Below the pieces are notes generated by a model, which saw only the letters and a program-made list of their open reading frames with translations, had not been told where the DNA came from and did no database searches. A stretch of 64,000 bases of DNA, from NCBI GenBank assembly GCA_008632985.1, contig QPGO01000172.1, positions 62,001 through 126,000 on the forward strand. The letters run 5' to 3'. Positions 20,251-64,000 of this stretch are shown piece by piece. The translations under genes and the position numbers were made by a program. The DNA comes from Psammoneis japonica. Taxonomy: Eukaryota. Every line of letters begins with the position of its first letter. Positions within the stretch are counted from its first letter, which is position 1.

Positions 20251-22073
20251 CTCCTACTGTCTAAAGAACAGAGGACGAAAAAATAGAGACTGCAAAGGCA
20301 AAAGAAAACAATGCTTGGCCTATTCGGCTACAGATAATTTATTCACTTGAAGCCGGCATTAGGGCTGGAATGTTCAACCGAACTGGGGCAAGAGTTGTGG
20401 ATCAAGATGTGGATCAACAATCTCTGAAAGGCATTTCACGATACAGAGCTCACAAAGGTGGAAGAATACGAGAGCCGAGGAAACGATGCGAACACTGACA
20501 TGTTTGGAGAATTACCACTTCGCAAGGCTGTGCGGTGCGTGAGTTATCGCATGGAGCACGTCAAACAAGAATTCAGGAAGGCCGTGTATCTTGCATTGGT
20601 AGAAAACAAGGGCGACGACAAGGATTATACTGCAGGCTTGAAGAGCAACGCCGTGAAAAGAGCAAGAAAACTGAAGAGATCACCAAGCAACTTGGCAGGT
20701 TAGAGCATGACATTGAGGAGCTACGCGAGGCTCTAAATGAGAAGATAGGAACTTGGAGTGCTAAACGAAAAACTGCATGGGAAAGATCGCGAGAATGAAC
20801 AGACGAAAAAGATCGACGAGCTACTTGAGGAACTCGGTGGGAAGGATCAGGAAATTTAACTGTTGACAACGTATTTTGAGATTCAGTTGTTGAAAAAATA
20901 GATTGAAATGTTGGAAAGGATGTTGAAAAATGAAATGTTAGACGAATGAAAAGATGAAGGGGGGTTCTTCTCCGCAACTTTTGGTTGTCGTCGGCATCAT
21001 TGTTTTGGAATCATCTGCACCACGTGCTTCCTGCAGTAGAAGTTACATTCGGGCTTATCATAGTAAGTAATGTGATTGGAGACTGACTTATATATGAAAC
21101 GACTGAAGCCGTTTGCTCTATTTTCATAGGTGAAGTTAGTTAACGCACTCGTAAGTTAGTTCTGGTCCTCCGACGTCACAGCGCGCTTGACTATTAATAC
21201 TAGGTACTCTGAAGGCACGACGCGTCGGGAAAGTAGGGCTATCCAAAAGACGAGCGTGGGGGGGGCGATCAAGACGTCCAAGACGAAAAGACAGGAGCAG
21301 CTTAATGCGCGGCCCCTCATCATCTGACGACGCTACATAGAAAAAAATGTATAACAACGAACAAAACCACCTAGATGACGATGAGGTTACATTATGAAAA
21401 CTCTCCCTAGAGCACAAAATCATTGCAATCGATGCAGTCTACTCTCTACTCTAGTACGTTGTTTCGGCTGATAATGCTCCGATCCTGTCTTGCATCTAAT
21501 ATGCTGAGAGGTGCTTAGATTCCATGTCCTCGTCCACGGGCCCGGCAGGCATGAAGACACGAACAAGGTATGATGAATACTCTAGCTTGCGTCGTCCTTG
21601 TAGTACCTCTAGCTAGCTATGGCCCTATCTAGCTCTAGGGCCCTAGGCGCGCTCGCCTCGCTCGAGGATCCACAGCCTCATAGCGCGCTCGACTTCTCAC
21701 GATAGAATGCGCACGACACGAGCGTGACGTTGTTGCGTGCCGCGAGCAAAACGAAACGCAAAACCAAGAAGGCGACGACGAGTCGGTCAAGATGGCACGT
21801 CTTTTGTGTGACAGCGGCTGACGAAAGTAGTTTAGAACTTGTATCCAAAAATGTGGCAACACCAATCCGTACCCACGACACAGCACGACACATGATTGCC
21901 AAACCTACTCGTCGTCTCGCTATTACCCCGGCCCATCACCGAGTCGTGACAACGTTATGTACATTTTTACGTGTTTTGTACCGAACATCATCGGATGCCG
22001 ACCACGCAGTTATTTTTCTGTGTCGAGTGTTGTGTCATAATTTTCAGAATCGCCGTCGATTCACAGCTCAACC

Positions 22074-24116
22074 ATGAAAATTGTTATCAACATCCTTTTC
22101 TGCTTTGCCTTTGTTGCCTCCATGAGCACTGGTGCTGTCGCCGCCAGCCCTCCTGCCTCGCTTGTCGACACGGCAAAGAGCGGTCTTCGAGCTCTTTCGA
22201 TTGCCGCGGCAGAGAGTATCGACGTGATGCACGATGACTTGTCACGCAATGCTTGGAAAATGGCTATTGCTATGGGTAAACTCAGGGGAAAGTTGGAAAG
22301 TTACCACAATGCCCCAACCAGTGCCAGGACCCCCACGGAAGAAGCTCACGTCTCCCCGAGCTTGGTACCCTTTTGCCTATCTCTTAATGACGACCACGAC
22401 CACGACGATTCGCCAGCGACACGTCTTAAACAAGTTCTACAAAAGACTAGGCCCGTGCCGGTTAGGCCAATGGACCGTTCGAAAAGCAGTTTCTGTTTCT
22501 TTTATGAGCACGATAAGGACGAACCAGACTACCTCAAGACCGTGGAGCGAATTCTTCGCGACATTTCTCCGACGATCACGTCCTCCATCGACAACTTCGA
22601 CTTGCACGCTGATACCGAGCCAACCTTTTACGACAGGTTTTGCAACTGGTGGAAGACGGTCGAAGACGTATCGAGTCGCTTGATCACTCAAGTGCAGACT
22701 CAGGCTGGCGTGTTGAAAGAACACAATGTTTGGAAGATGGCTATTACTATGGACAAACTCAAGGGAAAGCTTGACGGACCCCACAATGCCCCAACCAGTG
22801 CCAGGACCCCCACGGAAGAAGCTCACGTCTCCCCGAGCTTGGTGCCCTTTTGCCTATCTCTTAATGACGACCACGACCACGACGATTCGCCAGCGACACG
22901 TCTTAAACAAGTTCTACAAATGACTAGGCCCGTGACGGTTAGGCCAATGGACCGTTCGAAAAGCAGTTTCTGTTTCTTTTATGAGCACGATAAGGACGAA
23001 CCAGACTACCTCAAGACCGTGGAGCGAATTCTTCGCGACATTTCTCCGACGATCACGTCCTCCATCGACAACTTCGACTTGCACGCTGATACCGAGCCAA
23101 CCTTTTACGACAGGTTTTACAACTGGTGGAAGACGGTCGAAGACGTATCGAGTCGCTTGATCACTCAAGTGCAGACTCAGGCTGGCGTTTTGAAAGAATA
23201 TGAGTCTATGCCGCTTAGGATCCAAACTTTGTACAACTCCAGTATCGAAAGGCACCAGTTTGAGTTGAGCTTATACAATTGGGGGAAGAGAGTTGAAGAT
23301 ATCTCGATGCGCTTGATTGCTCGAGTGCAGACTCAGGCTAGTCTTTTGCTTGAACGCAAGTCTATGCCGCTTCGGATCCCAATTTTGTACAGCTCCAGTG
23401 GCGAAAGCCACGGGTTGGGGTTGAGCTCATACAATTGGGGGAAGACAGTCGAAGCCGCCTCGATGCGCTTGTTCACTCGATTGCAGACTCAGGCTCGCCT
23501 TTTGCAAGAAGACAAGACTATGCCGCTTCTCACACCAGCCCTGTTGAAACCTCTTGTCGAAAACCGCCAATTCGAGCTGTTGAGGCATTGGTGGATACGC
23601 GTGAAAGGAATGACGACGACGTTTGGAGCATTTATGCTATTGTCGGACAGACCCAGCATCAAAGAGAAAGTGCAAGACGTATCTAAATGGATTCAGACTA
23701 GTGGTTGGCCTAAGTTGATTGCTAAGCTGTCCTGCATTCAGAGTATTGAGAGCAAACGTTGGCGAAAGAAAATTCGACGAATGAACTCTCGCATCTCGAA
23801 AAGGTGTGAAGCAAAGTCGTCTATGGGGTCGTTTGACATTTACAGTGCGAAGTTGTGTCAGCGTTGGCAAAAGGGAGTTGAACGATTGCGGGCTCGTGTC
23901 TCTAAGCATATTGAGCCCCGTATCGAGAGTGGCAAGTGCAAACGTTGGCGAAAGGAAATTTGACGAATTAATTCTCGTATCTCGAAAAGGTGTGAGACAA
24001 AGTCGTCTATCGAGCCAGGATCATTTGACAGCTACAAAACGAAGTTGTGCCAGCGTTGGCAGAAGGGAACGGAACGAATGCGGGCTCGCATCTCGAAACA
24101 TTGTGAGGCGCCGTAG
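22074..24116 (+). CDS. Secreted repeat protein (signal peptide, 159-aa near-perfect duplication) with probable premature CGA>TGA stop at 23961
   Basis: 629-aa ORF with hydrophobic N-terminus and a 477-bp internal duplication (22248/22725). The C-terminal repeat reads att cga cga in copy 1 and att tga cga in copy 2, and stays in frame to TAG at 24114-24116. Confidence 0.7.
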
Positions 24117-30859: not shown

Positions 30860-31416
30860 GACGTGTTCCAGCCGCACGTGAACCAAATCGTGCACAAAAA
30901 CAACATTTGCGCGATTTTTGCGCGGTCCCTAACTTTACGATCGAACTTTCACCACCAAAAGTATAGATTTATACAAATGTAAATGTTTTGCAACACTAAC
31001 AAGACTCGTGTGAGTGTTGCAATATCATTGTTATTGTGCTATCTATGTTTTACATTGCGTTAAAAGATTCGTAACACAACGGATGATTTTCGGCGAAAAT
31101 GTTGCCGTTATTTATATGTTACCTAAATATATCTTTCTACGATGCTACTTGGTAGGTTTTCTACCTACAAAAATATCTCAGTATAAATCTACGGACGTAC
31201 AATCAGTATTGAGTCTACTGAGGAAGTTTATGATACATATCCCATGACGATTTGAATACCCCTCAAAAAACTATTTAAATGTACATACTCTAGAAGCCTA
31301 TAAAAGTCAATCCGTCTAAGTATTTTTTATTAAAATGCTGTATACACTAAAGCATGCATAAATTATGTTCAAAATCCGATTGTCGTTTTGTGCGTCACCT
31401 GGGACTGGAACACGTC
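30860..31416. mobile_element. GAC-terminal MITE, subfamily 3, copy F (557 bp, AT-rich core)
   Basis: TIR gacgtgttccag...ctggaacacgtc with tgct on both sides. Inserted in a (tgc)n run and splits a minus-strand poly-Ala coding stretch. Confidence 0.85.
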
Positions 31417-31956: not shown

Positions 31957-32346
31957 GACGCGTTCCAGCCCTAGGTGGGACTCCGTGTGACATTGGGCCC
32001 GTAGAATTCTACGTGCGAGCTCCGTAGTACGAGAATTTAATTAATGGATATATTCATCTTCACTATCAAATAAACGGCCAAGTTTGTGGTACAATTATGC
32101 CTCTTACCACTCGACGTTTTTGCAAATGCACCTGCCCTACGCGATTTTTAAGACATTATAGAATCGCGCTGTAACAAAAAATGTCAAAAGTTGTTGGACG
32201 GATCGCTCAATAACTGTACCGTAAAATGACACAAAATGTCAAAAAAATCACGTAGAAATCTACGTGCGCGACATACGACGTGATTCAAAAAACTATCGAT
32301 GTCACAGTTCAGTAGTACGAGGTCCCACCTAGACCTGGAACGCGTC
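31957..32346 (+). mobile_element. GAC-terminal MITE, subfamily 1, copy C (390 bp)
   Basis: ~25-bp TIR gacgcgttccagccctaggtgggac / gtcccacctagacctggaacgcgtc; TSD gcac/gcac. Confidence 0.95.
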
Positions 32347-42460: not shown

Positions 42461-42498
42461 TTGCAAAGTATAAAAGCAACTGAACATAGCAAGCCACA

Positions 42499-43776
42499 AT
42501 GCCTTTGAAAAAGCTCAATTCGTTATTTCCAAGAAGAAGGTCTTGGCGTCGCGGAAGTGATGACTTTCCAACGGAGGATCAGATAACGGCGGTAGCTGAA
42601 GCAGATAAAGAAGAAGAAGAAGTAGAGCAGGAGGTGAACAAACAACAAGTCGATACAGAAGTAGCGGAGAATGATGTATTGGACGAAGCTGCAATTCAAG
42701 ACATGATTAAACGACTAATTTCGGTGAAGTCAGAGCCAGAAGGGACATCGGTCTACTTGTCGGAAGAAGAAATGACGAGTCTTTGTCACTTAGCAAGGCC
42801 GATTTTCTTACAACAGCCGGTATTTTTAGAGTTGGTGGCGCCCATGAAGATATGCGGAGACATACACGGCCAGTTCCGTGACTTACTCCATATGCTTGAC
42901 AGTGTCGGGTACCCTCCAGCAAACAACTTTTTATTTCTGGGAGATTATGTCGACCGAGGCAAAAACTCGATTGAAACGATTTCCTTATTGCTTGCCTTTA
43001 AGGTGTTGTATCCTGAGAATTTCTTCTTGTTGCGAGGAAATCACGAATGCGAGACTGTCAGTCGAGTCTATGGGTTTTATGACGAATGCAAGCGTCGCTA
43101 TTCTGTGAAACTGTTCAAGACCTTTTGCAGTGTCTTTGATTGTCTTCCCGTCGCAGCTCTTTTGGAGGAGCGTGTCATTTGCATGCACGGTGGGTTATCT
43201 CCCGACATACAGAGCCTTGCCGACATTTTGGATATAACTAGGCCATGCCCAGTGCCTGAATATGGACTCATGTGCGATTTACTCTGGTCTGATCCGACTG
43301 AGGTCGAGGTGGGTACTTCTTCTCTCTTCACTTTCTCTTTTTCCGGTTTGATCTTGTCTCTAGAGTTCGTTTCTCATGGGAATTTGTTTCTGTACGACTG
43401 TCAGGGCTGGGGTGATAATGAACGTGGCGTATCTTGGGTATTCGGTGCGGATGTGGTGGAGCAGTTCTTGCGTGCTCATGACCTTGATCTGATAATTCGT
43501 GGTCATCAGGTAGTGGAGGATGGGTACGAATTCTTTGCGAACCGGCAACTGGTGACGCTCTTCTCTGCTCCGAATTATTGCGGTGAATTTGATAACGCTG
43601 GGGCCATGATTATCGCCGATGAAGATTTGACCTTGAGCTTTCAAGTCTTTGGCACTTGTCAAGAAGCACTGGATGGCATTGCAGATCGGCAGGTCCAGAC
43701 TAACGACGAAGGAGAAACTGAGACGAATGGTACCGAAGATGTCATCCACGAGAACGGCGACAGCAGCGCTCCATAG
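42499..43776 (+). CDS. PP1: Serine/threonine protein phosphatase PP1 catalytic subunit (96-bp in-frame intron 43309-43404)
   Basis: [45 protein letters not shown] and [11 protein letters not shown]. Removing GTGGGT...TCAG restores [18 protein letters not shown]. Confidence 0.95.
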
Positions 43777-45083: not shown

Positions 45084-45789
45084 TGTTGCACACAATATTC
45101 AGTACAGTAGGAACGAACAAGGCAGGTGTGGTTGTTATTGATGATCCTGATGACAGCGAAGAAGATGATAGCGGCGACAATAGTACTGTAGCGACGACGC
45201 GGACGCGAAGTTGACACAACAACAACCAAGCCAAAGCAGAGAAAAAACGCAGAGAAGATCGCGATCTTTCAATTTCCGGGTTAGTAACGCGAACAAGCGT
45301 TTGTAATGCGTCCCTTCCCGGTTCTCAGCCTCACGTTTTGCCTGGTCTGCTTGTCTCCCGACGCTTACTTTTCTCCGATCGCTCCGACTCACATTCTGAA
45401 TTCTTCATCATCTCTCGCGCGCGTAGCGTCTCGCGCAGTTTTTTCGCTTTGCCCATTCTTCACCTTCAACCTCTTTGCATGCGCTATCACTCTACCGGTA
45501 TCACAGGCTCTATTGTTCTTGAGCTCAAAGTCGCAATGCTGCGATGCTGCGATGCTTCGAATGTGTCTCATTTTCTTGAGACATAATGTTTCCGCTTTGA
45601 TCATCATATAAGAATGCTGTTCAGGCCTAATTATTGCAGCAATCAGTTGGGAGGTCACGTTTGAAACTCCGACAGGTCGCGCTCTCGTTCTTTCTGAGCT
45701 GCCCGAGAACAACAGTGAGGGCGAGGTAAGAAACGACCCAGTATGTACGGAACAAATAAATTGTCACCATTGTCTCTTTATGATGATTG

Positions 45790-47150
45790 GAATGATGATC
45801 GAGGCATTGTCTTTGTATAAGAGGGTGTGGGCGCAGTCTCATCATGGGTCGGAAGAAGGATCGTGGTTTTTTCTCTAGCCATCTCGGGGAGAAGCCTGTT
45901 AGTGGAGGATCGATTCGATGAGGATGAATCTCTCCATGAACGTTTGCGGAAGTGTAAAGCCATTGCCGCTGAGAAATTCGACAACATTGCACAGAAGTCC
46001 AACGTGATTTCGTCTCCAACGCTGTTGAGCAGCATGATGCAGCAACAACATGCAGTACAAAATTATTCTCGCAAATTATCTCATGCTGAAGAATGGCTCG
46101 ATAAAATTTCGATTGAGGTTTCGGGTGTACGGTATCGTTATAGAACCCATGACGGGCACACAAATTGTCGAACGAGTCAAGACAAGAACAACTGAAGTGC
46201 AGCGACGCTGTTTGCATTTTCTTGTGTCGTGTCAGCAAGAATTACGTGCAGTCCTGGCAGCTGAATGCCAGGGATGTGAGTTAAAGAAGAATGCGCTTTT
46301 GGGTGGGATGAAGGATGGAGAATCGTGGGGATTGCGCAAGGGGTTTTGAAACACGGTGGGGCACTTATTGCGATTTGCAACGATTTGGAATGTATCTTGA
46401 CGGCTATCCAGAAAATGGATCGTGAAGCAGAAAATACGCATAAACTCGCCGAGCGACTGAGACCCATGGCCAAGAGAACGTTTGTTTTGTTGAAACGAGA
46501 CGTGCCGGTTTCGTATCAAGAACAGAGTTCGGTCTCACCCGTATTTGCCTTTTTTCATCGACTCGAGTATGCCTTGCGGGGTGTTTCTAATGTTGACCCA
46601 GAGGATGACGGTGTGATTTGTATTGACGGATGACGATGAAGTCCATGGGATTAAGCAAAAAGAGGCTAGCAGCCCAGCCAAAAAGAAAGCGGAAGTAATG
46701 AGTCAGGGACAAGCCAAGCGAAGGAAATCAGAGATTGGTGAGAGCAACGTCGTGACGACAGCAACAAAAGCGCGTGGTCCCTTTCATACTATTGCCAAGG
46801 GCGGAGATGTTTCGGACGATGACAGTGACATCGAAGTAGCTGGAGTCTCGGGAAAGGTATCGTCCAGCCCTTACGGTGCACATGCCGTACGAGTACCATG
46901 CTCAATGCGGCCTCTGGTACAAAGTGTTGCATGTGTGACAAACACTTTGATAAGAGTGGCAGCTATGAAGTGAAAGAGACAACCACGTGATTCCGGTATG
47001 TAGGAAAATGCTGCAACAATTGCAGAGGAATTTTGGGCCACAGTAGACGGCTTGGCGGCGGGGGTTTCTACCGCTATTTCCGCATCTACCGGGGATTCGA
47101 ATTCGTCCATGACGGCGGACGAAATTTTGTTTGAAACTAATCAGCAAGGC
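45790..47150 (+). pseudogene. Frameshifted hypothetical protein
   Basis: Chain of overlapping protein-like ORFs (45827, 46050, 46325, 46623) in successive frames. Confidence 0.35.
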
Positions 47151-47988
47151 ACGGTAGTTTCCATAATGTTGGACAGCTCGTGCTTTTATTTGATTCGGCA
47201 TTCGATTTGTTTCCGAGACATTTACGCGGCCTTGCAGAGAGACGGCAAACTTTCAACGGAGTGCAAGCTATCGACTTTGTGTTTGTGAATTCTCATGGTA
47301 CAATGCCAAGGAAAGCGCTAAACAACGGTCCCAAACAAGCGCTTTACGTCGGTGTGAAAATCCAGAGCATCGACGACAATGCTTACCAACAAGACGAGGG
47401 AATTGAGTGGCTTAGTTATTCAAAAGCCACAGCAACCGACGACACCTGCTTTTAAGTCTTATTCGCTTTAGTGACGTTCCTGCCTGCCTGCCTGCCGGTG
47501 AGGGTGTGAGCAGTACTCATAAAGTTTGCTTCTGATTCGTTGTATGCGATTGATTCTCCGAAATACTTTTAGGGCGATTACCACTCTACCTGTATGGACA
47601 ACACCTACTCCTACACCTATTGCAGAGACCGGGGAACGGAAGAAACTGCCCACCAAAACAATGGCGATTTTGGCCAAAATTTTCGTACCTGCCCTTCTGT
47701 ACCTTGTAGATGGTCTCTGCTTATCTATGAATGAGTCCAACGATTTCCCGTCGAGATCAAGGTCGAGTTCGACAATAGCCGTACGGTGGAAGTCCATGCA
47801 CCCGGGCTAGAGCGTCGTTGGTAGCTCTGTTGAAACGATGAGAGCCATTCTCTTTCTCCTCTCGCTATCTGTTTTAACTCAAGCAACGATGACGCAGAAT
47901 TTCCAGATTCAGATCAAAAGGAAAACAAAGGGCGCCACGAGAAAGCCAGATGAATACTTGAAACGGATTGCAAAAATTACAACTAGCT

Positions 47989-49643: not shown

Positions 49644-50750
49644 ATGCCAGAGACCAGAAGTGCCGCCGCCAGGCGTCGGCGTATTGCTGAAGGGCCAATT
49701 ATTCCTCCACTCTATTTGCCATCGAGTGCCGTTGGCGAAATTCTGGGTTACTTGGATCTCGCGTCGCTTGTTTGCATCGGTGCTTGCAACAGTAAATTGA
49801 AAAAGCAAGTGTACGAGGTTCATCACTGGCTTTGGAGCACTATTGATTTTGGTACAGCAGGCAGATCCGTTGCGTCAAGAATCACAGACAGTCAACTTGA
49901 AGCACTGCTCCGCAATAGTCAGGCTCTTAAACGCTCTCACACTCTCAAGCTCAACGGCTGCACTCAAATATCTGGGAACGGATTGGAGCCTCTTCGCGGC
50001 TCGTGTATGCTACGAGAGATTGATCTAAGACTTGCATTTGAAAACGAGTCGGGATTTCCTGATGAGAAGAAAACCGTGTGGCCAAATGGTCCAGTTGAGC
50101 TGAATCTCGACTTTGTGTTGCCGTTGCTCTCGTCCATGCCACCGATTACGCCATCGCCTCTGCTGCAGAACGACTCACTCGGACTCTCGCTTGTCAAAAT
50201 TCGGAAGGAACGGCACGATTCTACCCGTCTTTATGACTGCTTTGGACATCAAATCGACAGGTGGTACTGTACCTTTCATGAAGCTCTGGAAACCCAGGCC
50301 ATTGTTCAGCAAACCCGCTGTGGGCATTGCGATCGCGTCATTGCGCAGGTGACACCCAAGGACCACCTGCATTGGGTGAGCAGCCTTTCTTATTGTGAGA
50401 AATGCAAGAAATACGCCTGTGGTGGCTTGACGGGTGATTGCATTATGAAGGATCAATGCATGTCTTGCATGGTTCAATGTTGCCAGCCCTGGTGGGGTGA
50501 ATTTGAGGTCAAAAAATGCCCCAACTACATCAAGATTCTCACTTGCGCGTCCTGCGGCTTGGGAGAATGTGACAATTGCTACTCCTACGAAGGAATGTTA
50601 TGCGATGGTTGCGATGATTTTTATTGTCATACCAATGGCTGCCGTGATATTCATTGCAGTACATGGGAAAGTTGTGGGAGTACCTATTGCATGGAATGCC
50701 GTGAATCTAATCAGAATGACGATTCTGCTGCAACGATAGGGACACGCTAG
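49644..50750 (+). CDS. F-box/LRR-like protein with Cys-rich C-terminus
   Basis: LP....EILGYL (F-box-like), WSTIDF, ITDSQLEALL and LKLNGCTQISGNGLEPLRGS..LREIDL, followed by many CxxC; intact 368 aa. Confidence 0.75.
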   Translation: MPETRSAAARRRRIAEGPIIPPLYLPSSAVGEILGYLDLASLVCIGACNSKLKKQVYEVHHWLWSTIDFGTAGRSVASRITDSQLEALLRNSQALKRSHTLKLNGCTQISGNGLEPLRGSCMLREIDLRLAFENESGFPDEKKTVWPNGPVELNLDFVLPLLSSMPPITPSPLLQNDSLGLSLVKIRKERHDSTRLYDCFGHQIDRWYCTFHEALETQAIVQQTRCGHCDRVIAQVTPKDHLHWVSSLSYCEKCKKYACGGLTGDCIMKDQCMSCMVQCCQPWWGEFEVKKCPNYIKILTCASCGLGECDNCYSYEGMLCDGCDDFYCHTNGCRDIHCSTWESCGSTYCMECRESNQNDDSAATIGTR

Positions 50751-51206
50751 ATAGAGAGTGTGGACTTGTTGAAAATACCGGTAGAATGGTCTCTACTAAG
50801 AGGGCTTCAGGAATTTTCTAGTTGTAGGAAATACTATAAGCATGAAACTTTTTCAATGGTCTTTCGTTCGTTTTCGTCTGACAAGACTGCAAATATTGGA
50901 TAGACCACGACATGCAATATGGGGCGGAACTACTTCTAAGCATTGTCGTTCTGAACTAATGGTTCATCGTTTGCTAGTTTGTGCGCACTGACTGATACCA
51001 ACAACAGTTCAAAAAAATATTGAATCTTACCACGAAACTGTCCAAATTGGTTCTAGCAAGTATAGGCACCAGCAGTGCCGCAATTGGAGAAGACAACGGG
51101 GTTCATGTGTCGTTCAGCAATACAAATGATCGTGGCTTGTGACAGATTGGTGAAATGATAATGAAAAGCTACTCTAGAGAGTATGTCACTAGCTTGAATA
51201 GCTTCG

Positions 51207-53408
51207 TCAGTGCTCCGCTCTGGTGCAACTCGCGTTTCCAGTTTCCATGACAAGGCGGCAGGACAGATTGTGGCAATGACACGTTACTTGAGATTTTTCT
51301 GCTTCGTTTTTTCTCGCTCCGCTTCTCCCGTATTCTTGGAAAGTGGAGACGCGGTTGTTGCGGTTGGAGCTTTTGTTACCGATAGAGGTGGTTCGTCCGT
51401 TGGTTCTTTCGTTACGGTCGTCAGTAGTCTTGGTGCTCAAGTCTCTCTCTTGGGTTTCCGTGTCCGTTTGAGATACTTCCTCTGCAGTCGACGCCTGCTT
51501 TTCCTTATTCAAGGATGTAGACTTTGCACTTGCATCCTTAGTCGAAGAAGACGCTCTGATGCTCTCGCTCGAACCGGCTTCTTCCTTTGATGCCTCGTTG
51601 GGGCGGCCCTTCGCCGTAGTTTTCGATTTTCGTTTTGTGGTCTTGGCTGCCTTTGAAGCTGGCGCTGCTGTTTTAGTGCGGTCTCGTTCCACAGCTGCAA
51701 CATCAATGTGCATACACTTGAGACCCGAGACAAACACAGGATCCTGAACAACTTCTGGGTATTTGAGCAATATTTGCTTCAACTCCTCCCGTGCTTGAAC
51801 TTTGGTTTCGGCATCAAGAGCCTTGTGCAACATGGCGATGCGTTCGTTTGTGCGTTCCTCCTCGACAATGGCTCTCTCAAAATTAGGCAAAACTTGTGTC
51901 GGAAGCATAACATCGGCGCGGGGTATTCCATCCAACATACAATACAATCTAGTTGGTTCTTTCGGTTGCGGCTGCCCCGGTATCGGGCTCTTGATTGTCA
52001 CCTGCACAACACCCGTTGCCACCAACACTTCAACAATATGTTGCAATGTATTGGGTCCCAGTATGACATGCCCACCACGTGGTATGTAAGACTCTCGAGA
52101 CGATTGTATTGGTGGGAGATTGTATTCCAGTTGCTCCAGAGAAGGCGGCCCGTCTGTACAAGTACAGGGAAGAAAGAGTACGAGGTGAGCTTCGTTGCGA
52201 GGAAGCATTGAATCATCAACACCACAAATCCACTTACACGTTTGTAGCAGGGACATTATGTCATGAGAAGTTTGAACTACAACTGGGTCCGCAAGGGGCA
52301 TGTGCGGTGTTACAGGAACAGCACGTGACGGATTGCCGCTGGTATCAGCTGCGACTTTGCGCTTCTTGCTCGTCGGCTCACCAGGCGGAGTTGTGTTTGC
52401 ATGCTTCTTGTCACTGATACCTTGACTTGTCCCTTGCTCGGCGTCGGTGGCGATTTTCTTTACGCCATGTTCTGATGCAGTTGAAGATTCTCGTACTGCT
52501 GCTGCTTTCTTAGACACGGTTGGAGTCGTCTTATCCGCGGTCGATGTGTGGGACTTCTCAGCAGGATGATTCTTACTGCTTGCAGCAGCCGGTTTCTTCG
52601 CAGATGACGATGAATGTTTTGCTACCGACGGTCTGTCAATGGTAGCGAAGTTTTTTTTGCTCTTCAAAAATCGCGATACTGAAAACACTTATCGAAAATC
52701 GGCTTTCGTCACCCACTACATGACACCAAGTTGCAGTGGGTGACGAAAGCCGATTTTCAATATCGGCCATTGTGGAGGCTCCAGAACAATAGCAAAGTCT
52801 TATCATAGAAACAAGCTGTCCCTAAGTAATTTATATAGTATACAAATCTGTATGACCTTTCCGAACTCCGGATTAAATGTCATATTTTTTATAAAATTAA
52901 TAATCGAATATAAACATAAAAATTAATTACAGATAATCGAACATAACAGTTATTTTTTCTTAAAAGCAACTAACAAGTTTTCAACGAAAAACATTCGCTT
53001 TCCAGTCACCCCGACCGATGCCGGCACAACATGCGTTGGACCTTATTCAGCTCGTCACGAGCTTTCGATCGACATGTGGGTCATGGGGTCTGCGAGGTCA
53101 TCCTAAAAAAAACTTCTCAACCATTGACAGACTGTCGGTGCATTGCAGCTTGCACCCCGTGAAAGAGGTGCATTGCAGCCGTAGACCTGGCATGTTGACG
53201 TCACGCGCACATTTTGTGCCACAACACTGTGCAAATCACCTCGTCCCGTGACGTCATCACTCTCCGAAATTTTTGCGCAACGAGCCGAAGGAGTTTTTGG
53301 TGGGTGACCATGATGAACGCGCAATGATTCTGGTGGCAAACAGCAAGTTTGTTCTCGACGGCACATTGTAGAACTGCCATGTTTTCTTTCCTTCATTGAA
53401 GCGTGCAA
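51207..53408 (-). pseudogene. Hypothetical protein split by a TA-target MITE; 5' part hypermutated
   Basis: Removing 52625-53138 and one TSD fuses ORF 53103-53408 (..RGASCN) in frame to ORF 51207-52688 (VAKHSSS..). Confidence 0.65.
52625..53138. mobile_element. 514-bp MITE with ~34-bp TIRs and TA target duplication (Tc1/mariner-type target)
   Basis: ccgacggtctgtcaatggtagcgaagtttttttt ... aaaaaaaacttctcaaccattgacagactgtcgg. Flanks are TA (52623-24) and TG (53139-40). AT-rich core with a 24-bp-stem hairpin at 52694-52758. Confidence 0.8.
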
Positions 53409-53806
53409 CTTTTATGGTGGAAAACTGTCAAAAACATCTTGTTCACAGCTTGCAAACTTGGAGGACCCATGCAAAATCCCCCTTGTCACAAGTCGAAGTT
53501 GCATCTGGACAGAAGTTCCAGTTGCCCGAAGTTCAATGCTTCAATGGATTTGGGCCACATTGATCTTTGGGAACTGTTCTGAAGAGAAGCGTCGTGAAAT
53601 GACGACGAGAGCATCCATTTTGATGCTTCCGATCATGAGTCAGATGCCGGAACATGTGTTGTGAGGTGAGCACTCGAGGCCAAGCTTCACAACATTTTCT
53701 TTTGTTTTCCTCACAAAATCCTTTGTTTTCGACTTCTTCATTGTTGGGGTGAAGCTTTCTGGCTTCTCGTTTCATGAAGAAAAAGAATCAGAAGAGTTCT
53801 GCTGGT

Positions 53807-54202
53807 GACGGGTTCCAGTCCTGGGTGGGACTTTTTGTGACATTGGGCCCGTAGAATTCTGCGTGCTAGCTCCGCAGTAAAATTGTCAAGCAATGGATGT
53901 GTGAATGATCGCCAACAGAAAAAGAGGCAATTTTGCGAACGCATCTCCTCCTCCACACTTGAAGCACATTCTTTGCAGCATGCCCGGGTGTGTTCTTTAG
54001 ACAATGAAGAACACACCCAGTGCATTTTTATTGACACAAGTGCAGATGACAGAAAGCCTTTGGCTTCGCAAAACAGGCAGTGTGGAACAATTTTTTACAA
54101 TGGAACACGTGGAAATGTGCGTGCGAAACACATGACGGATGATAAAAAACAATTGTGTCACAGTTCAGTGGCACGAGGTCCCACCTAGAGCTGGAACATG
54201 TC
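53807..54202 (+). mobile_element. GAC-terminal MITE, subfamily 2, copy B (396 bp)
   Basis: gacgggttccag...ctggaacatgtc; TSD tggt/tggc (1 mismatch); colinear with copy A. Confidence 0.9.
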
Positions 54203-55571
54203 TGGCCGAAGAGAGTGTTTTTCTCTCATTTTTTGGCACCTCAGAACCGCGAGTCATTCGAGGGCCGGCAGTTTCACATCAGCGGTTGTTGTTCTAAGAG
54301 ACTCAGTCATTTTCGAGTTCAACATTGTGTCTTTGAGACTTTCAGGTCTTTCAATGGAAAGCAACCGATCAAAAGGACACCATCATCTCGCAGAAGTGGG
54401 TCAGACTCGGATGTTTGCGTGGTGGCTGGAAAGCACACCAGGACAGAGACGTCCATCGTCAAGGCCAGATGAGCTCCAAAGCATGCTCTTTTAACACTCA
54501 TTGGATTTGTGTCGAAATGCTCAAGCACAAATTGTAGAATTGGCCACACACTGGGTTGCGTTTGGCTCTCCATCGAGCCCAGACCCAATCTGAAGGAATC
54601 GAAGTGCGCAACGAGTGTTGGGGCAACACCATCATTAAGACAGCTCCCCACTGAGAAATCACAGTGCTTCAAATTGTCTTGCTGGCTTGTGTGACAGGTT
54701 CAAATGCTTTGGCAAGGTGTTGGTTCCCCTGCTGCATCGCAGGCGCAGCGAAACCCAGAGAGTGCGTTCCGTGACTCAAACCAAACGTTTGAGGACCCTC
54801 TCCTTGCAGCAGTTGTCACTGTTTTCTTAGATGAACCAGCTTTAGAGCCCTGGATGGCTGGCTCAGGTGTGTGTTGCATCAATGATGGAGTGCTTGTGGT
54901 TGCCATGTCACTCAAAGAACTTCTTATGTTGGTTTGGTCGGATGAGCCTGACCCGTCAAAAATCTCCATTCCAACAGCTTCCGGCATCTCAAGCACTTGA
55001 AAAACTTTGTCATTCATCCCAACCACCAACAACAATTGCTTTTGACCACACATGGCAACAAAGGAGTTGCCGGTGGCATGCACCTCTGCTGGTGAGGTCT
55101 TGGGCAGATTCGCACTCAGCGGCAACGACAACACGCGAATGTGGGTGAGTCAGTGAAATGCAAAAAACATCGCTCAAATCGAAACTTTGAGGAGGAATCG
55201 CCACACAGTGTCCTTCTGTTGGGAACAACAGAGACTGTTGCACCCCGATTCCTCCTCAATTGTCAACATTGACAACCTCGGAACAGTGCATTCGTCATGG
55301 TCGACGGCTTTTTTTTCCTGCACAAAAAGCACGGAGAACGCGGATGACGGACAAGCAAAAATCAAAAACATTTAGTCGAATTGTTCGAGCTGTGATGCAA
55401 CTCTCACGCAGAACTTTCACAGAGTGCTTGTCACGCAGCCAACCTAGATGTCGTGTTGATCCTGTGCAACTGGCAGGAAAATTTATTTGCCATGCAAAAG
55501 GCCGAAGTAAAAGACTCAAACACATCATCAACAAAACACACAAAGCAATTGACATTTGACATGCACATCCA

Positions 55572-58500
55572 TTGTGACGACTCCGTCCTGACAAGCGACC
55601 CCACAATGAAACCCTTGTCGAAGTCAATCGCACTGCGGTGCGCTTTGAACTCCTTGACAAGTTTTTCAATTGCCTCCAGAGACATGGCATCCTGCTTGAT
55701 CTCTTGAGAGATGCCAGGCTGTGAAAGAACCATGCAAGCACAAATGTGTCGTCGAGCGCATCAAGAAAACTTGCGAATTCTCTCAGTGGCAAGCACATCG
55801 GCCGGTGATGATTCTCACACCAGCGCTCTAAAGTTCTTTTTTCCCTTTTTCCTTGACAAAGGTTGCAGACGATGGCATTGCTTTGCCAGTCCCCAGGAAC
55901 ATTCTCTGTGCCTTCCCCAGCCATTTCTGGATGACACTTGGGCGTTCGATCGATTGTCACACCCATTTTTCGACCCATCGTTTGCAACAACGTCTCCTCA
56001 TTGACGAAATCATCGCAGGTAGACATCAAGTGTAGCAGAGATGTGGACTTGTCAATCTCGCCGTCTGCACCCTTTGTGCCATCCATTGCACACTTGCTGG
56101 GGTTGTTTGGATCAATGAATCCACGCTCGTGCAAGATTTGCTTCAAACCTTTTGCTTTGTCGCACCATCCATGCTTCACTTTTTGAACCGTTTCTTCCAC
56201 AGGTGCGTTGTTGATCTTGGCCACATCAATCAAATCATCCTTCTTCTTGCTCCTGATGTTCTTGACATTCTTTTGCAGGAGTTTGTCACAGAGTTCAGGG
56301 CGCGAAAACTTCCGAGTTTCAGTTTCTCCTGCGACAGGTGCGTCACACTTCTCGGCTTGTCATTGCTCCGGTGTCATCCAATGCGGCCCCTCATCATTCT
56401 CACCAAAAACCATTGTCTGCATTGATCCTGCAGACAGCACTCCAATGGCCTCAGCACATGGGCCTAGAAAGCCCTCTGCCTGCAGAATCTCAGTGGGGTG
56501 CATTTTGCTCTGGCTGCCGCCAACGCCTGCGTTCATCGTGCGTTTGTCACAAATCAGTCCGTCGGCTCTCTGCTTGTCATGCCCGCAAGAATGGTCAAAG
56601 AGGAAATGACATTCAAGCTGTGGACACATGACCTTCAAACAGTCGACACAATCCTCCAGCTGGACCAACATGTGGTTGTAATTCCAGTGGCCTTCGTTGT
56701 TGGCGCCACATTCAAACTCACAAAGAAACGGGCTCTCAGTCAGTTTTGGCTTGTGTTGCTTTTTACCAAACACCACTTCTGCGGCTTCTTCATCGGTGTG
56801 GCATTTGCCTGCACGAGTTGCGTTTGTCTCTGCAAGCTGCTCTGGTGACACATCGGCATCACGCATGAGGCCAACCTCTCGGCACTGGAACAAGGACTCC
56901 ATTGCGCCTTCACCGTCATCTTTTGGCAGCAGAGGTCTTTCACCGTCAGGACCTGACCAAGATTTTGTGCTGAGCAAGCACTGCTTGAAAATGGCTTCGT
57001 CTTGTCCAAAGATCATAACTGGCTTTTCATTTGGGTCCTTGCGCACGCTTTCGCTCCCCCCAAATTGCACAGACAGCTTCTCGGCGAGGATTGGATGGGT
57101 GGGGTCTATGACGGTGTCGACGTGGCATTCCACAAAATCGTCCCCATCAACTTGGCATTCACACCCTGCTTTGGCTGGGAGTGCTTCAGCCGCGATCAGG
57201 TCCGTTGCAACAGCTTTTGGTGGCTGCACCCAGCGCAAGGTGCATCGTTCTTTCGTGAGGCATCTACGGACCATTGCATTCCTGCACCTCACATTGTCCG
57301 GTCGTTCATGATTGTCAACGCAGTGCATCTTTTTGTTTGGTCCATGTTTGAAACCAAACTGGTTCATCCAATTAGAAACAGCATTGGAGGAGATGCTTTG
57401 TTGGTTTTCCCCGGCAAGCAATCCATGCTGATTCAGGAACTCCCGCTCCGATTGAAAAATTTCCTCCCCGTTCTTGCAGCGGCCTTCATTCTCTCTCTTT
57501 GAGAATTCCGGTGCGAGCATTTCGTGGAAGTGGTCTGCGGCCACCTCAGTGGAAAGTCGAGATAGATTGGATGACATGAACTCAATGAATTTCTGCTTCA
57601 TCTTCGGGTGCACTTGGAATGCCGGTGGATCTCCCTTTCCTTTTGGGCGCGGGTGCGAAAATGAATTTAGGCACCTGAAGATCTCATGCCACACAGCTGC
57701 GGTTTGGCAACTTTTTACAAAGTCAACACCTGCACCGCTAAGATCATCTGTGGCCAGCTGGCAACACTGCAGCCAGGCAGTCTTCCCTTCCGGCAGCCTC
57801 TTCAACGCGCAGTCCAGAGCAATGGCGAGACACTGGCATCGCAGCGCAGTCCAGAGCAATGGCGAGACACTGGCATCGCAGTCGCATCACGTGCACGTCG
57901 TTCTGCATGCAAAGATCATCGACGCGTTCCAGCCCCAGGTGGGACTCCGTGTGACATTGGGCCCGTAGAATTCTACGTGCGAGCTCCGTAGTACGAGAAT
58001 TTAATTAATGGATATATTTATCTTCAACATCAAATAAACGGCCAAGTTTGTGGTGCAATTATGCCTCTTACCACTCGACGTTTTTGCAAATGCACCTGCC
58101 CTACGCGATTCTTAAGACATTATAGAATCGCGCTGTAACAAAAAATGTCAAAAGTTTTTGGACGGATCGCTCAATAAGTGTACCGTAAAATGACACAAAA
58201 TATCAAAAAATCACGTAGAATTCTACGTGCGCGACATGCGACGAGATTCAAAAAACTGTCGATGTCACAGTTCAGCAGTGCGAGATCCCACCTAGACCTG
58301 GAACGCGTCCATCTGGATCCCCACCTTCAATGACTTCTTTCCATCCATCACAAGATGCAAAACCAGTTGTTAACTTGTCAATCCGTTTCTCCATTGCAGC
58401 TTTTGCACTCTCCCCGTCTGCTGCATTAAAAAGACACTTCACCCTCTTGTCATCCCAGTGGCTGCCGACAATCTGGGTCAAATTGTCAGTGTCAGAGTCC

Positions 58501-59201
58501 TCACCAGAGCTTTCTTTTTCTTCTTCTCCTTCTTTTGATGCGTTGCTGTTTGTGTCTTCTTTTCTTTTCTTTTGCTTGTGCTGGTTTTTGCTTGTCGTTT
58601 TTACCAGCGCTCCTGCATCATGCACCAACGGCCGTTTGTTCATGCCGTCTCGAGTTGCCGCTTTCTCCTCGTGTTTCTTCAAAGCCAGCATCACATCAGT
58701 GAGTTCTTTCATCTTTCCAGGAACAAACTTTGGCACTTCTCCTTCTTCACAGGCACAGTGGGCCACGACGTTGGCACTCTTCTTGCCATCGCACTGGCCC
58801 TTGAATTTCTTGCGAAAAATTCCCTGCATGTTCTCATCTGCTGTGTCTTTGTCAACATTGGGGAAACCCTTGGATGCTGCTGAATTCAGTGCTGATGCAT
58901 TCAAGGTTGTGTCCTTGTCAAATGTGCACGCTTCTTTTAGCATGTGGACAAAGCAATTTGCTTCCATCCATTTGCAATGAAACGTGGGGGTCTTGCACGC
59001 TGCCATGAACTGGGAAGTGACAATTCCGGTGGGTGTCGATCGAGACACTCGGAGCACATCACCTTGGTGGCTCATGATGACAGTTTGCAAGCGATCTGCA
59101 AACAAACCTCCAAGTGGACGCAATTGGGAGTTGTCAAAAAACGCACCTTTCGGGCAGCGCCATTTTGGTTCGATGCTTGTTCTTTTCCCCGTGCTTTTCA
59201 C
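55572..59201 (-). pseudogene. DDE transposase (IS630/Tc1-like), hypermutated, split by MITE D
   Basis: FGQDEAIF, GHWN, FLFDHSCGH, KGLKQIL.ERG, TPKCHPEMAGEG and KAHRSAIDFD. In-frame TGA at 56360, a 37-bp tandem duplication (57809/57846) and a frameshift near 55905. Confidence 0.85.
57921..58309 (+). mobile_element. GAC-terminal MITE, subfamily 1, copy D (389 bp)
   Basis: Same TIRs as copy C; TSD catc/catc; excision restores the transposase frame (GDPDDLC). Confidence 0.95.
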
Positions 59202-59553
59202 ATCCAGAAACGGCCGCCAATGACGTCATTTTTGAAAAGTCACAAAATTCCAGTGTGTTCCACACAATTTCTGCTGCATCTGCATTTTCTGCGTGACAAG
59301 CTGTGCCTGCACTATGACGTTAGCCGGGTGGGGCCAGTTGGTCGCGCACGTTTGGGTTCGATGCAGCCATGCAACCAGCCATGCCCTGCAGGAAGAGCTG
59401 TTGGTGGCGCGTGAGCAGAAGCAACAAAGCAAAGAACACGGCGTGGGTCAAAACGTTGTAAAATGACGCAACAACAAGCAGCGAGAAGAAACCCAACTTG
59501 ACCCATGAATGCAGCGCATGCATGTTGTCCAACCACTTCAATGGCACCTCGCA

Positions 59554-59943
59554 GACGTGTTCCAGGTCTAGGTGGGACCTCGTGCTGCTGAACTGTGACA
59601 TCGATGGTTTTTTGAATCACATCGTATGTCGCTCATGTAGATTTCTACATGATTTTTTCTACATTTTGTGTCATTTTACGGTGCACTCATTGAGCGATCC
59701 GTCCAACAACTTTTGACATTTTTTGTTGCTGCGCGATTCTACAATGTCTTAAGAATTGCGCAGGGCAGGCACATTTGCAAAAACGTCGAGTGGCAAGAGG
59801 CATAATTGCACCACAAACTTGGCCGTTTATTTGATGTTGAAGACAAATGTGTCCATCAATTAAATTCTCGTAATGCGGAGCTCGCACGTAGAATTCCACG
59901 GGCCCAATGTCACACGGAGTCCCACCCAGGGCTGGAACGCGTC
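59554..59943 (-). mobile_element. GAC-terminal MITE, subfamily 1, copy E (390 bp)
   Basis: Reverse-complement copy of C/D; TSD cgca/cgca. Confidence 0.95.
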
Positions 59944-61685
59944 CGCATTCCCAGCTTGTAGATGAGGGGACGGGTTCGCGTTTCTCGCCATGGTGTTGTT
60001 GTGCGTTGTCGTGTTGTTTGAGCGCAAAGAACACGGGATCTATTTGTCCGACAGTGACTCTGTTTTGGCAATGGCAGATGTTTTGCTGTGTCCAATCTGC
60101 GCACATTCTGAGAAGCACTTCGCGACAACTCTGTTCGCACCGTTAAATGGCAATTTTTTTTATTCAGATTCCAGAGTTCTTTCGGGGTGTTCTGCAAGAT
60201 TTTTGAATTGGCACACACACACATTCGAGGCACAAGCAAATTCAATGACATGTAAAATCCTCAGAGACCACAACAAATTTGTCTTCCGTGTAGACCATGT
60301 GGATTGTGTGCCGGCCGAAAATCCACCGCCTGTCAACTCATCAGCAGCAATTCTGCGCATGTTCTACTTGCACCTCACACACGCACACATGCCTGCACAG
60401 TCTGACAACTGCGCAGACGTGCGCGAGATCAGAGCCAGAATTCGACAAAGCTTTTGAGCTTGCTGAAGGAGGAGCTGCACCCGGGGCTGTGGTGAGGGAC
60501 GACTCGTTGTTCTTGCCGACATCGAGTGCCGATTTCATTGGGGGCAAGCTTGGGTTTGTCTTTGTGTCGTGCTTGGATTCCGAGGTGCATGTGATTTTCT
60601 TTTTCTCATCTGAAACAGAAGGAGTCTTCGTGGTGGAGTCGACACCAGGGTTGTCCTTGGCAGAACAAGAGGCAGGGGCTGCTGGCACGGTCGTCGTCAT
60701 GGTCACTCTTTCGAAATGTGCACGCAAGCAGGGGTCATAGACTGCACGCATGCACTCCAATGCTGGCACTGAGTCCACACAAACAAAAGCAGCGAAAGTC
60801 TGTCCGCACTCCCAAAAAGCAATGCTGCATGCAAGGCATTGGAGTCTTGAATGCATGACGCGATTTACATTTTTGTTCGACTTTGAGGATGTCAGGCAAT
60901 GACAATGTCACATGCAGTCTTCAGGGCAACATGAATCTGAGTGCATGATGCACTCGACACCTCAAAAGGTTGGTGGCTTTCTGCGCAGCCTGCGCAAGTT
61001 GAAGTGAAACATCATCATGCTCGCCTGCCAAGCAACCACTCAAATTTTCAAAAAAATCCACACAAATTCGTGCTTTCTCAAACCCCTCACCTGTGCCTCC
61101 CAGCACCTGGCATGACGAGAAAGTGAGGGACCTGCATCCTTTTTTAAATCAAGCTCCCAGACACCCTCCTGGACAACATGCCGAAAAAGGATGCAGGAGC
61201 ACAAGGAGGAAGATCTCGTTTGCACCAAGAGTGTCAGCACACTCTCCATGAGATGGAAAAGGAAGAGTGCAGAGAAGGGTCTCTGATCATGAAATGGAGC
61301 AACCCAGCAGGAAGAAGAACTTTGTTGAACACTTTGAAACCACACTCAAGAAGCTGCCAATTTGGCTGGTTTTTCCTTGGTTGGATGGAAAGACACAGTG
61401 GGAAGCTGGACCCACCACATGAGCTGTCGTCATCCCAAAAGACAGCGCTCCTTCTGAAATGGGAGATGACTGTCAAAAGCGGTTTTTTCGAGTTGGTGAA
61501 ACATCTTCACTCAATTGGGGTCTGCAACAACTTGAGCAAGACTTGGTGATGTGACCCATCTGCTCACTTGCAGATCTTGCAAAGTCAGACAAGAGCAGCT
61601 TTCTGATGTGTGAGAACCATGTGCTCCATCTCTCTTGTGGCAAAACAAGAAATGAAATTGAGGAAAGCAGGAGGGGGGCAAAAAG

Positions 61686-62252
61686 TTGGACACTGGACTG
61701 TTTGTTCAAAAAGGTGTTTGTTGCTGCCAATGTCGTGAGGAGTGCAGGATGCTTGAGTGCCAGCAGCAGCATTTTGCAGGCTCGCCAATTGGCCAACACT
61801 TGGATTTTGTTTCTTCTCTGCTTTCTGGATTCAACAGCTCTCCACTTGGGGCAGCTTTGCACCAAGACCAAGCAGGCATCATGGATGAGCTTCTAAAATT
61901 CAATCCTGAGGTTGTTGATGTGCTTGTGGAAGAGGGCATGACTCCTTTGATTGCTGCCATGGAGTGGGGCAATGTGGAGGGGGCAAGAGTTCTCTTCCAG
62001 CATGGCGCCAATGCCAGCTGCAATGATTCCTCCACTTCTAGAATGGCATGCCAAGGAGCAAATTCAAAAGCACAATGTCTGCCAGCTTGCATCAACCAAA
62101 CAAATGAGCTGCAGAGGGAGGCGGGGCAGCACCTGGTGTCTTTCACAATCGCGACATTCTGTGTTCGGCAATCAATTGAATCGACTGACTCGCTGCGTTG
62201 GTGTTTGCGTCAATCTGCAAAGTTGGCAAACTCGAAGTGGAACACCAAATGA
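61686..62252 (+). pseudogene. Ankyrin-repeat protein fragment, hypermutated
   Basis: SSPLGAAL...IMDELL and GMTPLIAAMEWGNVEGARVLFQHGAN. Confidence 0.75.
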
Positions 62253-64000
62253 ACTGTTGTCAAGAAAAGTTGACGCTGTGCTGGCAACCATTTCAAAATC
62301 TTGTTGGAACATTGGACGTTGCAGTCCAGCTGACAAGTTGCAAACAAAAGCGCCACTCTGCTGGCACGGCACATGGGATTGGTTTTCCTTGTCCTTTGTG
62401 AGATGCATTTGAGCACAAATGATGAACTGCGTCTAACTCCTGAGTCAGCTCATCAACAAACGCTCGTGCCAAACACTGAGTCAAAGGGAATGTCGCCCAT
62501 CCCTTGTCACAGCACTGGATGACAATGGCTGCCCATCCAGCGTTTTTGTCATGTCAAAGCTTCCCAACTGCGGCAGGTGAAAATGACAAGTCCCAAGATC
62601 CAACAAGTTGTCACAGCTGTGAAAGGTGCATGTGAGCTCCACATCAAATGTGCAATCTGCCGCATGTGTCGGCTTGGAGAGCTCCCTCTTGTGGCACTCC
62701 AATGACTTGAAATGCTGTCAAAGCAAATTTGTGCTCTGTGGCATGTCAGCTTGTGGTGCGTGAGGTTCATTCCGGGGCAAGTCTGTGCTGAAGCTCTGTG
62801 CTCCACTGGCAAGGAGCTCTGGCATGCGCAGCTCTTGCAAGATGAGATCTGCGACCACACCCTGTGACAGTCTGCAAACAAAGCTCTTGATGATGTTTCC
62901 AATCAAAGGAGGTGGTGCCGGATTCAGAAGCTTTTGGAGCATGTCACCAAAGTGAACGCGTGACATTTTCAATGGCTCTTTGAACTGTCCTTGAACTGGC
63001 ACTTGCTTCTTCACCCTTGAGCGTTGCTCAGCATGCACATCGTGAGGTTGTGTTTCAAAGCCGAGCGAGAATGCTCTGCCCTTGAACAGTGGGGACTCAA
63101 ACTCTGTGCAGGGGCACCAACCGGGTGTGTTGCTTGCTGCAGTTTCCTGTTGTGATTGTGTCGTCGGACATCTGCATGAGTGACAGCTGATGAGGCCAGT
63201 CAGCAACATGATGCAGGAGCAACTTGAGAGCTTTTGCCAAGCATCTTTACATTCGCTTGCTGAGACACCACAGCATTCACCAAATGGCGCCATGTTCAAT
63301 GTCAGTGGAAGTGCCTTTTGGCACCTTTGGACCACCAACTCATGGGCAGAGAGTGGATCACTGCCATCAACCACTGGACACAATGACTCAGTGCCAGATG
63401 ATGTGGCACCCCACTCTGTGCAAAGAGCTGTTGTTCCCATTTCCATTCATTCGTCCTCCAAGCCAGTCGTGGCTGGAGACGATGCAACTCGAGACACATC
63501 AAAACCACTCAACGATGCCACTCAAACCTGGATGACTTGAGACAATGCCTTTCAAGAGAAGAACCTGCAGAAGATGCAAAATGAATGAATGAACATCAAA
63601 GCATGGGTCAGTGTGAGTTGCAAGTTGCAAAGTGCCGATGCAAGGCCAGACGAGTGCCGCCAATGTGTCTCGCCACAGATCACACAAAAAGCATGCCCCC
63701 AAGACAGGGGACACTTTTCTCATCTGTGACAAAGAGATGACAGCAAAACGGCGTGAAACAGAGGAGGTGCATTGAACGAATGAACATCAAAGCACGGGTT
63801 TGCCAAACTCATCGAAGACAACTGCGAAAAGACCCGTGTTTCGATTTCCACATGACGACAACTCTCTGTTTCTTGCCAAACCAAGGGCCTCACCTGACAA
63901 TTCGACCTCCCAAAAGCAATGTGCGCATCTTCAAAGAAGGAAAATGATCAAGAACAGCTCAAACAAGGCAGACAAATGCTGTTGTGTGGGCCGGCTGTGC

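Follow-up and report, generated by a model that had tools for sequence, protein, structure and literature searches.

In ascomycete fungi, RIP ruins repeats through C>T changes that create TpA. The process considered here resembles it in that dinucleotide-specific transitions ruin repeats and spill onto adjacent DNA. However, the change is A>G and removes TpA, a mirror image of RIP, and near-identical repeats escape or not depending on their location. Chromatin barrier elements, including A-tract and promoter barriers, are another point of reference because at our locus an AT-rich tract lies at the limit of a silent-type domain, although such tracts are here often crossed, are not element-specific and are absent at most edges. 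The closest match comes from the alga Bigelowiella natans, in which TA>TG/CA changes were measured de novo, with two viral inserts, partial depletion and 124 small clusters (bioRxiv 10.64898/2026.01.13.699255), and for which an ADAT-type deaminase was proposed (Mettrop et al., bioRxiv 10.64898/2026.01.13.699255). The change in Bigelowiella is the same as the one described below: TA>TG/CA on both strands, localised, in silent foreign or transposon DNA. The settings differ, Bigelowiella being a rhizarian alga with viral inserts and ours a diatom genome with DNA transposons and captured host DNA. The extent differs too: here about 41% of the sampled DNA is affected, erasure is near-complete, edges are sharp and CG loss occurs alongside. 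Edges and flanking-base preference are not treated between the abstract and the conclusion of the preprint (bioRxiv 10.64898/2026.01.13.699255). Literature searches, in which subscription journals were thinly covered, addressed this signature in diatoms or stramenopiles as well as barriers to RIP-like spread; apart from the Bigelowiella preprint, they listed no such paper.

The DNA analyzed is a stretch of 64,000 nucleotides from Psammoneis japonica (contig QPGO01000172.1, positions 62,001 to 126,000), hereafter the window. Among the named proteins most similar to a peroxidase encoded in it, all come from diatoms except two entries from Triparma. Along the window, the number of TA dinucleotides per 500 bp alternates between about 20 and about 2 while GC content changes little. 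A first-pass annotation had proposed that a MITE splits one gene, leaves one half of it hypermutated and acts as a possible barrier at the exact edge of the mutated domain. The phenomenon is real and striking, but that headline is half wrong (the gene halves) and half weak (the barrier MITE). We consider it fairly likely that the locus marks the border of a domain where the A of TpA, whichever strand it lies on, is turned into G by a host process, and that the MITE is mainly a dated witness of this mutation.

Results and Discussion

The features of the locus are listed in Table 1. The terminal inverted repeat element seen at first pass, here called MITE-A, is present. Its inverted arms are 35 nt long with 91% complementarity, its AT-rich core spans approximately positions 52780-52980 (74% A+T), and the ORF list of the window has no ORF of at least 150 aa inside it. 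A search of the 91-Mb assembly produced 57 matches, and loci were returned for 30 of the 57, ranked by similarity to the query. One fragment was dropped, 29 near-full-length loci were mapped and L012 and L013 were counted as one allelic pair, resulting in a set of 28 copies. Among the copies listed, the intact ones have TA at either end, and the empty site in the paralogs is a single TA; both observations support a TA-target duplication. Judging from its anatomy, we take MITE-A to be a Tc1/mariner-type (Stowaway-like) MITE. The likeness to that class consists of a size of about 500 bp, TIRs, TA duplication, multiple copies and an AT-rich core. As first described, the two target copies differ, the right one (53139-53140) being TG.

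Table 1. Features at the edge of the TpA-erased domain (window coordinates)
Feature	Position	Strand	Description
3′ part of host orphan gene	51207..52624	-	Not hypermutated; intact 545-aa copy on contig C10
Left target-site copy of MITE-A	52623..52624		TA, unmutated
MITE-A	52625..53138		514 bp, TIRs, TA target, inner hairpin 52690-52762
Domain edge	52952..52967		Last kept shared TA 52951, first converted TA 52967
TpA-erased domain	52967..64000		Runs on ~5.5 kb beyond the window end
Right target duplicate of MITE-A and left one of element D (each TG), with three host bases in between	53139..53145
Element D	53146..59303	-	TIR DNA transposon, TA target; decayed transposase frame 55295-57886, presumably DDE-type
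Element B	53153..55426		Chapaev-like, CAC...GTG ends, 4-bp target duplication; nested in the left end of D
MITE-C-related element	53807..54202		Nested in B, heavily mutated
MITE-C	57921..58309		4-bp target duplication, nested in D; young, 6/30 TA sites converted
Right target duplicate of D (TG) plus adjoining host bases	59304..59315		One further host TA changed to CA, one retained
Element E	59316..60427		High-copy non-autonomous repeat; contains a third MITE-C at 59554-59943
True 5′ part of host gene	60428..60700	-	Spans 91 codons; 93% protein identity with C10
Host upstream region	60701..60968	-	Hypermutated here, clean in the intact paralog C10

Comparison with related copies located the edge site by site. 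The host DNA at 50719-52624 keeps 64 of the 70 TA sites common to contigs C10 and C66, with two changed to TG or CA and four otherwise, and so retains the normal TA content that had been noticed in the 3′ part. From the left target copy of MITE-A through the left arm and the core to position 52951, none of 25 TA sites is changed, the sites being those shared by the two nearest MITE-A copies (at one further site, 52721, the difference is with L002 only). From 52967 through the right target copy, five of eight TA sites are changed (Fisher p=0.0002 versus 0/25 on the left), a count that omits one site near 53020 confounded by a 6-bp insertion. The survivors in the right arm are at 52971, 53044 and 53104, and two of them are in CTAA, a context that is resistant elsewhere too. 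Two-state segmentation places the edge at 52977. The edge is sharp and lies about 170-185 bp inside MITE-A, where the AT-rich core ends on its right side. The element as a whole, then, is not the exact edge, but the accompanying remark that mutation stopped at the AT-rich core agrees with the per-site map, which places the stop at the domain-facing border of the core.

On the other side, the depletion reported beyond 53140 was confirmed using element B and its unmutated copy on C223. At 26 of 29 and 51 of 60 TA sites (77/89 altogether), the sequence is now TG, CA or CG, and TA>TG/CA accounts for 78 of the 103 differences. Only 9 of 82 CG sites changed in the same comparison, so the C>T dominance of RIP is not found and CG loss is much slower. 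Of the five TA copies of host or target-site origin that lie right of MITE-A, four are converted. The TAs left in depleted DNA are chiefly TTAA, CTAA and CTAG, and ATAT and ATAC are gone; the residual TA ratio between depleted and normal DNA is 0.42 for TTAA, 0.27 for CTAA, 0.01 for ATAC and 0.002 for ATAT. These residual contexts indicate that the process prefers a TA with T or C as the next base. Local context was rejected as the cause of the intact core, because the ratios predict that about 3 of the 32 left-arm and core TAs would survive in a domain.

The target copies date the changes. That mutation took place after insertion, as the first reading held, is confirmed by the right target copy of MITE-A, now TG, both copies having been TA originally. 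Element D has TG in both target copies. Since both were TA at insertion and are now TG, mutation continued after MITE-A and D arrived; mutation thus followed each insertion.

The DNA on the two sides of MITE-A has different relatives: three paralogs, C10 (98%), C66 (95%) and C17 (82%), on the left, and C223, C3, C32 and more on the right. In C10 and C66, homology breaks at 52625 and picks up 12 bases on, at window position 60428; the empty site of C66 is TTTGCTACATTACCTGTACTATCAGAGCC. The C10 frame is intact (545 aa) and its residues 1-91 match window 60428-60700 at 93%. Past the insertion site, the paralogs continue with DVAKH (C10), NVAKH (C66) and DVTKH (C17), matching the window from 60428 onward. 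The same junction of 52625 with 60428, separated by 12 bases and skipping 7802, is seen in contigs from two public DNA runs of a single sample, but the runs possibly come from the assembly's own sample and the join is not independent support. It had been claimed that excision of the MITE rejoins SCN-VAKH in frame with a 5′ half located directly after the element. The three paralogs and the two DNA runs continue into 60428, not 53146, and the halves as drawn are not contiguous in the paralogs, an outcome that the first-pass annotation had itself named as refuting. On paper the frame reads through, and the first junction codons (N-V) are host sequence. The supposed 5′ half, however, belongs to element B, an insertion that has separate ends and a target duplication. 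We rejected this gene model, which the paralogs leave with practically no chance of being correct. Likewise, the frame with CRREQTCCLPP and RVHHGH is transposon DNA, and its unmutated copies hold stops; the unmutated B frame is MYRRE*TYCLPP, the stop having been lost through TA>CA. There is indeed one half-mutated gene, but the mutated DNA is a different one, 60428-60968, in which 13 of 16 TA sites are changed with respect to C10.

The host gene is a diatom orphan gene. Pfam gave no match for the host protein, the element D frames or the 5′ fragment, and the core of the protein has two unnamed relatives at about 40% identity. The multi-kb segment to which the gene belongs is found in several copies with differing block order (window 45574-47930, 50719-52625, 60428-64000 and 13225-13930 compared with C10 and C66). 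Elsewhere, a frame of 640 codons lies at window 22041-23963; part of it is a long tandem duplication, and Pfam gave no convincing match for it.

What follows MITE-A are seven host bases (53139..53145), the sole host-derived bases directly to its right, and a 7.3-kb nest of other transposons. Three separate transposons inserted into a 13-base stretch of one gene and displaced its 5′ part by 7.8 kb: MITE-A at the first TA, element D at the next TA, which lies three bases away, and element E a few bases beyond that. As three independent insertions (52623-52624, 53141-53145, 59304-59315, 60428), they represent a tight hotspot in coding sequence. Three MITE-C-type copies sit deeper within the nest. 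The domain covers the nest plus captured host DNA, and the targets identified are DNA transposons. The DDE-type label of element D is presumed from its motifs, with no Pfam match. The ends and 4-bp duplication of element B are seen here, on C3 and on C32. Chapaev (CMC) hallmarks are CAC...GTG ends and a 3-4 bp target duplication, and element B shares the ends and has a duplication of 4 bp (PMC4079192). Element B is probably non-autonomous or decayed; no frame of at least 120 aa lies wholly within its three unmutated copies. C223 and C3 share 99% identity over 18 kb save for a 2.1-kb insert in C223 exactly at the end of element B, and probably represent haplotypes or a recent duplication.

Element B is clean on C223, C3 and C32. 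Of the host unit, the copies on C10 and C66 are clean and the one on C17 is erased. Identical families are clean or erased depending on the copy, which indicates that the process depends on genomic position and not on sequence family. Repeat status, the trigger in RIP, does not act as one here: for B, the host unit and MITE-C alike, closely similar copies escape at some positions and are erased at others. The same observations bear on an explanation that dispenses with spreading, in which DNA recognised as repeated or transcript-matched would be rewritten, by RIP-like pairing or guided by small RNAs, and edges would mark the end of recognition or the effect of selection. Repeats do fill the domains, edges avoid ORFs, and erasure in three copies of element D stops close to where the transposase frame has its 3′ end. 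Nevertheless, repeats with 92-99% identity (B, the host unit, young MITE-C) are clean at some sites and erased at others, MITE-A is multi-copy and only its domain-facing arm changed here, and low-copy host bases between elements were converted as well. We consider this explanation quite improbable and favor a process that acts on domains by position.

Three TA-rich islands were observed within erased domains, at window 30930-31365, 31972-32335 and 57966-58298. The last two are young MITE-C copies, with 2 and 6 of 30 TA sites changed, respectively, and 15 of the 30 MITE-C loci listed are young copies nearly intact within domains. Young MITE-C inserts in domains are little changed, hence erasure of new inserts is not immediate, and such copies could be used to calibrate its rate.

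Domains were also surveyed in an unselected sample of 37 stretches of 10 kb taken at round coordinates from the larger contigs (370 kb). Two-state segmentation, with thresholds and settings of our own choice and overlapping null windows, assigned approximately 41% of the sample to the TA-depleted state and found 60 edges. The depleted and normal states have 3.9 versus 41.9 TA per kb and 23.8 versus 54.6 CG per kb. Within the window, CG density in TA-erased domains ranges from 9 to 44 per kb; this wide variation suggests that the two losses run on different clocks. Unselected edges tend to be found near ORFs of 200 codons: for 20 of 34 edges the distance is at most 500 bp, and for 26 of 34 at most 1 kb (median 325 bp). 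Eighteen of the latter 26 are at the 5′ end of the ORF, and only 3 of the 34 lie inside one, though such ORFs make up 53% of normal DNA. In the intact C10 and C66 copies of the host gene, the edge precedes the first in-frame ATG by about 250-340 bp, without MITE-A; in C10 it falls just past the counterpart of 60701..60968. Within the window, another edge (42469-42499) lies a few tens of bases ahead of the start of a Ser/Thr phosphatase gene.

The step at the border of the core raises the possibility, which we regard as unlikely, that the AT-rich core of MITE-A is a true but leaky chromatin barrier, either a nucleosome-poor tract or a cryptic promoter into the 3′ fragment. The sharpness of that step at this locus is in its favor. 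In addition, 9 of the 28 listed copies are depleted in the 700-bp flank on one side and normal on the other, compared with 11.5% expected when a 500-bp spacer is placed in unselected DNA (p=0.003), and single copies are mutated from one side: L022, bounding the wholly erased C17 paralog, from the domain side to mid-core, so that the C17 edge is again within a MITE-A copy; L016 in the domain-facing arm only; and L002 at the right target copy. However, 9 of the 28 listed copies (L003, L018, L023-L029), including 3 of the 9 edge copies, are converted straight through the core. An unrelated element that does not depend on TA, MITE-C, is found at edges equally often (10 of 29 classifiable listed loci, Fisher p=1.0 versus 9/28). 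The C10 and C66 edges have no MITE-A, and C66 has another insert there. A barrier specific to the MITE, as first suggested, is not borne out by these counts. Young insertions survive mainly between genes, and this alone would enrich them near edges.

Some further observations concern the copies themselves. The domains that cross an entire MITE-A at L025 and L027 end no more than 6-7 bases from its far end, by TA-rich flanks. The insert on C66 (230075-230451; L033, L050) is a distinct element of 376 bp upstream of the host-gene ATG, near the domain edge, and is related to DNA beside L012 and L013. A pattern of "invasion from both ends" in the 30 MITE-C loci was set aside, because the matches were ranked by similarity to a query bearing those changes; an unbiased re-collection had just five copies.

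AT-rich tracts in general were considered as well, as their enrichment at domain edges had been put forward as a check. In the unselected sample, tracts with at most 30% GC are found at 2 of 38 edges and in 4 of 381 interior windows (p=0.10), and at 36% GC the numbers are 6 of 38 and 22 of 381 (p=0.03). A-tract content, a measure scarcely altered by TA loss, shows no excess at 35 unselected edges (0.068 versus 0.068 in the interior, p=0.93). When selected loci are added, for 62 edges, it is slightly higher at the edges (0.084 versus 0.069, p=0.015). In three independent copies of element D, TA is kept to approximately +150 through a tract of 31% GC and erased beyond. These copies, L069 (C6), L070 (C65) and L072 (C165), are independent insertions with an erased interior and the first 140-150 bp of the left end intact, and some shared sites changed differently between copies; L069 has an 813-residue transposase frame that is still open, with Tyr turned to Cys or His. 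Taken together, AT-rich cores are neither necessary nor sufficient for an edge, but the core may set the stopping point here.

Regarding mechanism, our preferred reading of a position-dependent host process would involve silent chromatin seeded on transposon nests and spreading until it reaches open gene-associated DNA. The lesion could be deamination of adenine, or a modified adenine read as G, produced by an enzyme licensed in silent chromatin. The genome has 9 deaminase-family and 27 C5-methylase matches, unremarkable counts, with none tied to the process. Decay of methylated CG is established in general, and the slower CG loss may reflect such 5mC decay. Cutting of the gene would have brought the 5′ part and the region upstream of it into the domain. 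At present the front lies about 180 bp inside MITE-A, the outermost repeat, and the nest, the orphaned 5′ part and the upstream region are erased. Two points stand against this reading. The clean 3′ fragment lost its upstream region, and "open gene DNA stops it" is insufficient alone. Furthermore, edges beside genes could stem from selection alone. For the clean promoterless 3′ part, the leading idea, still a doubtful one, is that the MITE core serves as a local stop or a cryptic promoter. The C17 edge within a MITE-A copy and the edge of the D copies past an AT-rich tract favor a real effect of AT-rich tracts.

Conclusions

A bolder form of these ideas, which seems improbable to us at present, is that diatoms possess a chromatin-guided DNA adenine-editing defence that spreads from nests, engulfs genes cut from their promoters and is leakily checked by AT-rich, nucleosome-poor tracts of promoters and transposon ends, MITE-A being a mobile insulator. 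The four paralogous copies with differing edges, together with nested dated insertions, make the question of what stops the process directly testable. Erasure of TA removes TAA and TAG stops and produces false reading frames, which misled the first-pass annotation and is a warning for annotation in general. The flanking-base signature, TA followed by T or C, can be used to screen candidate enzymes. Genome defence through mutation of A instead of C has so far been reported in one alga, in a preprint.
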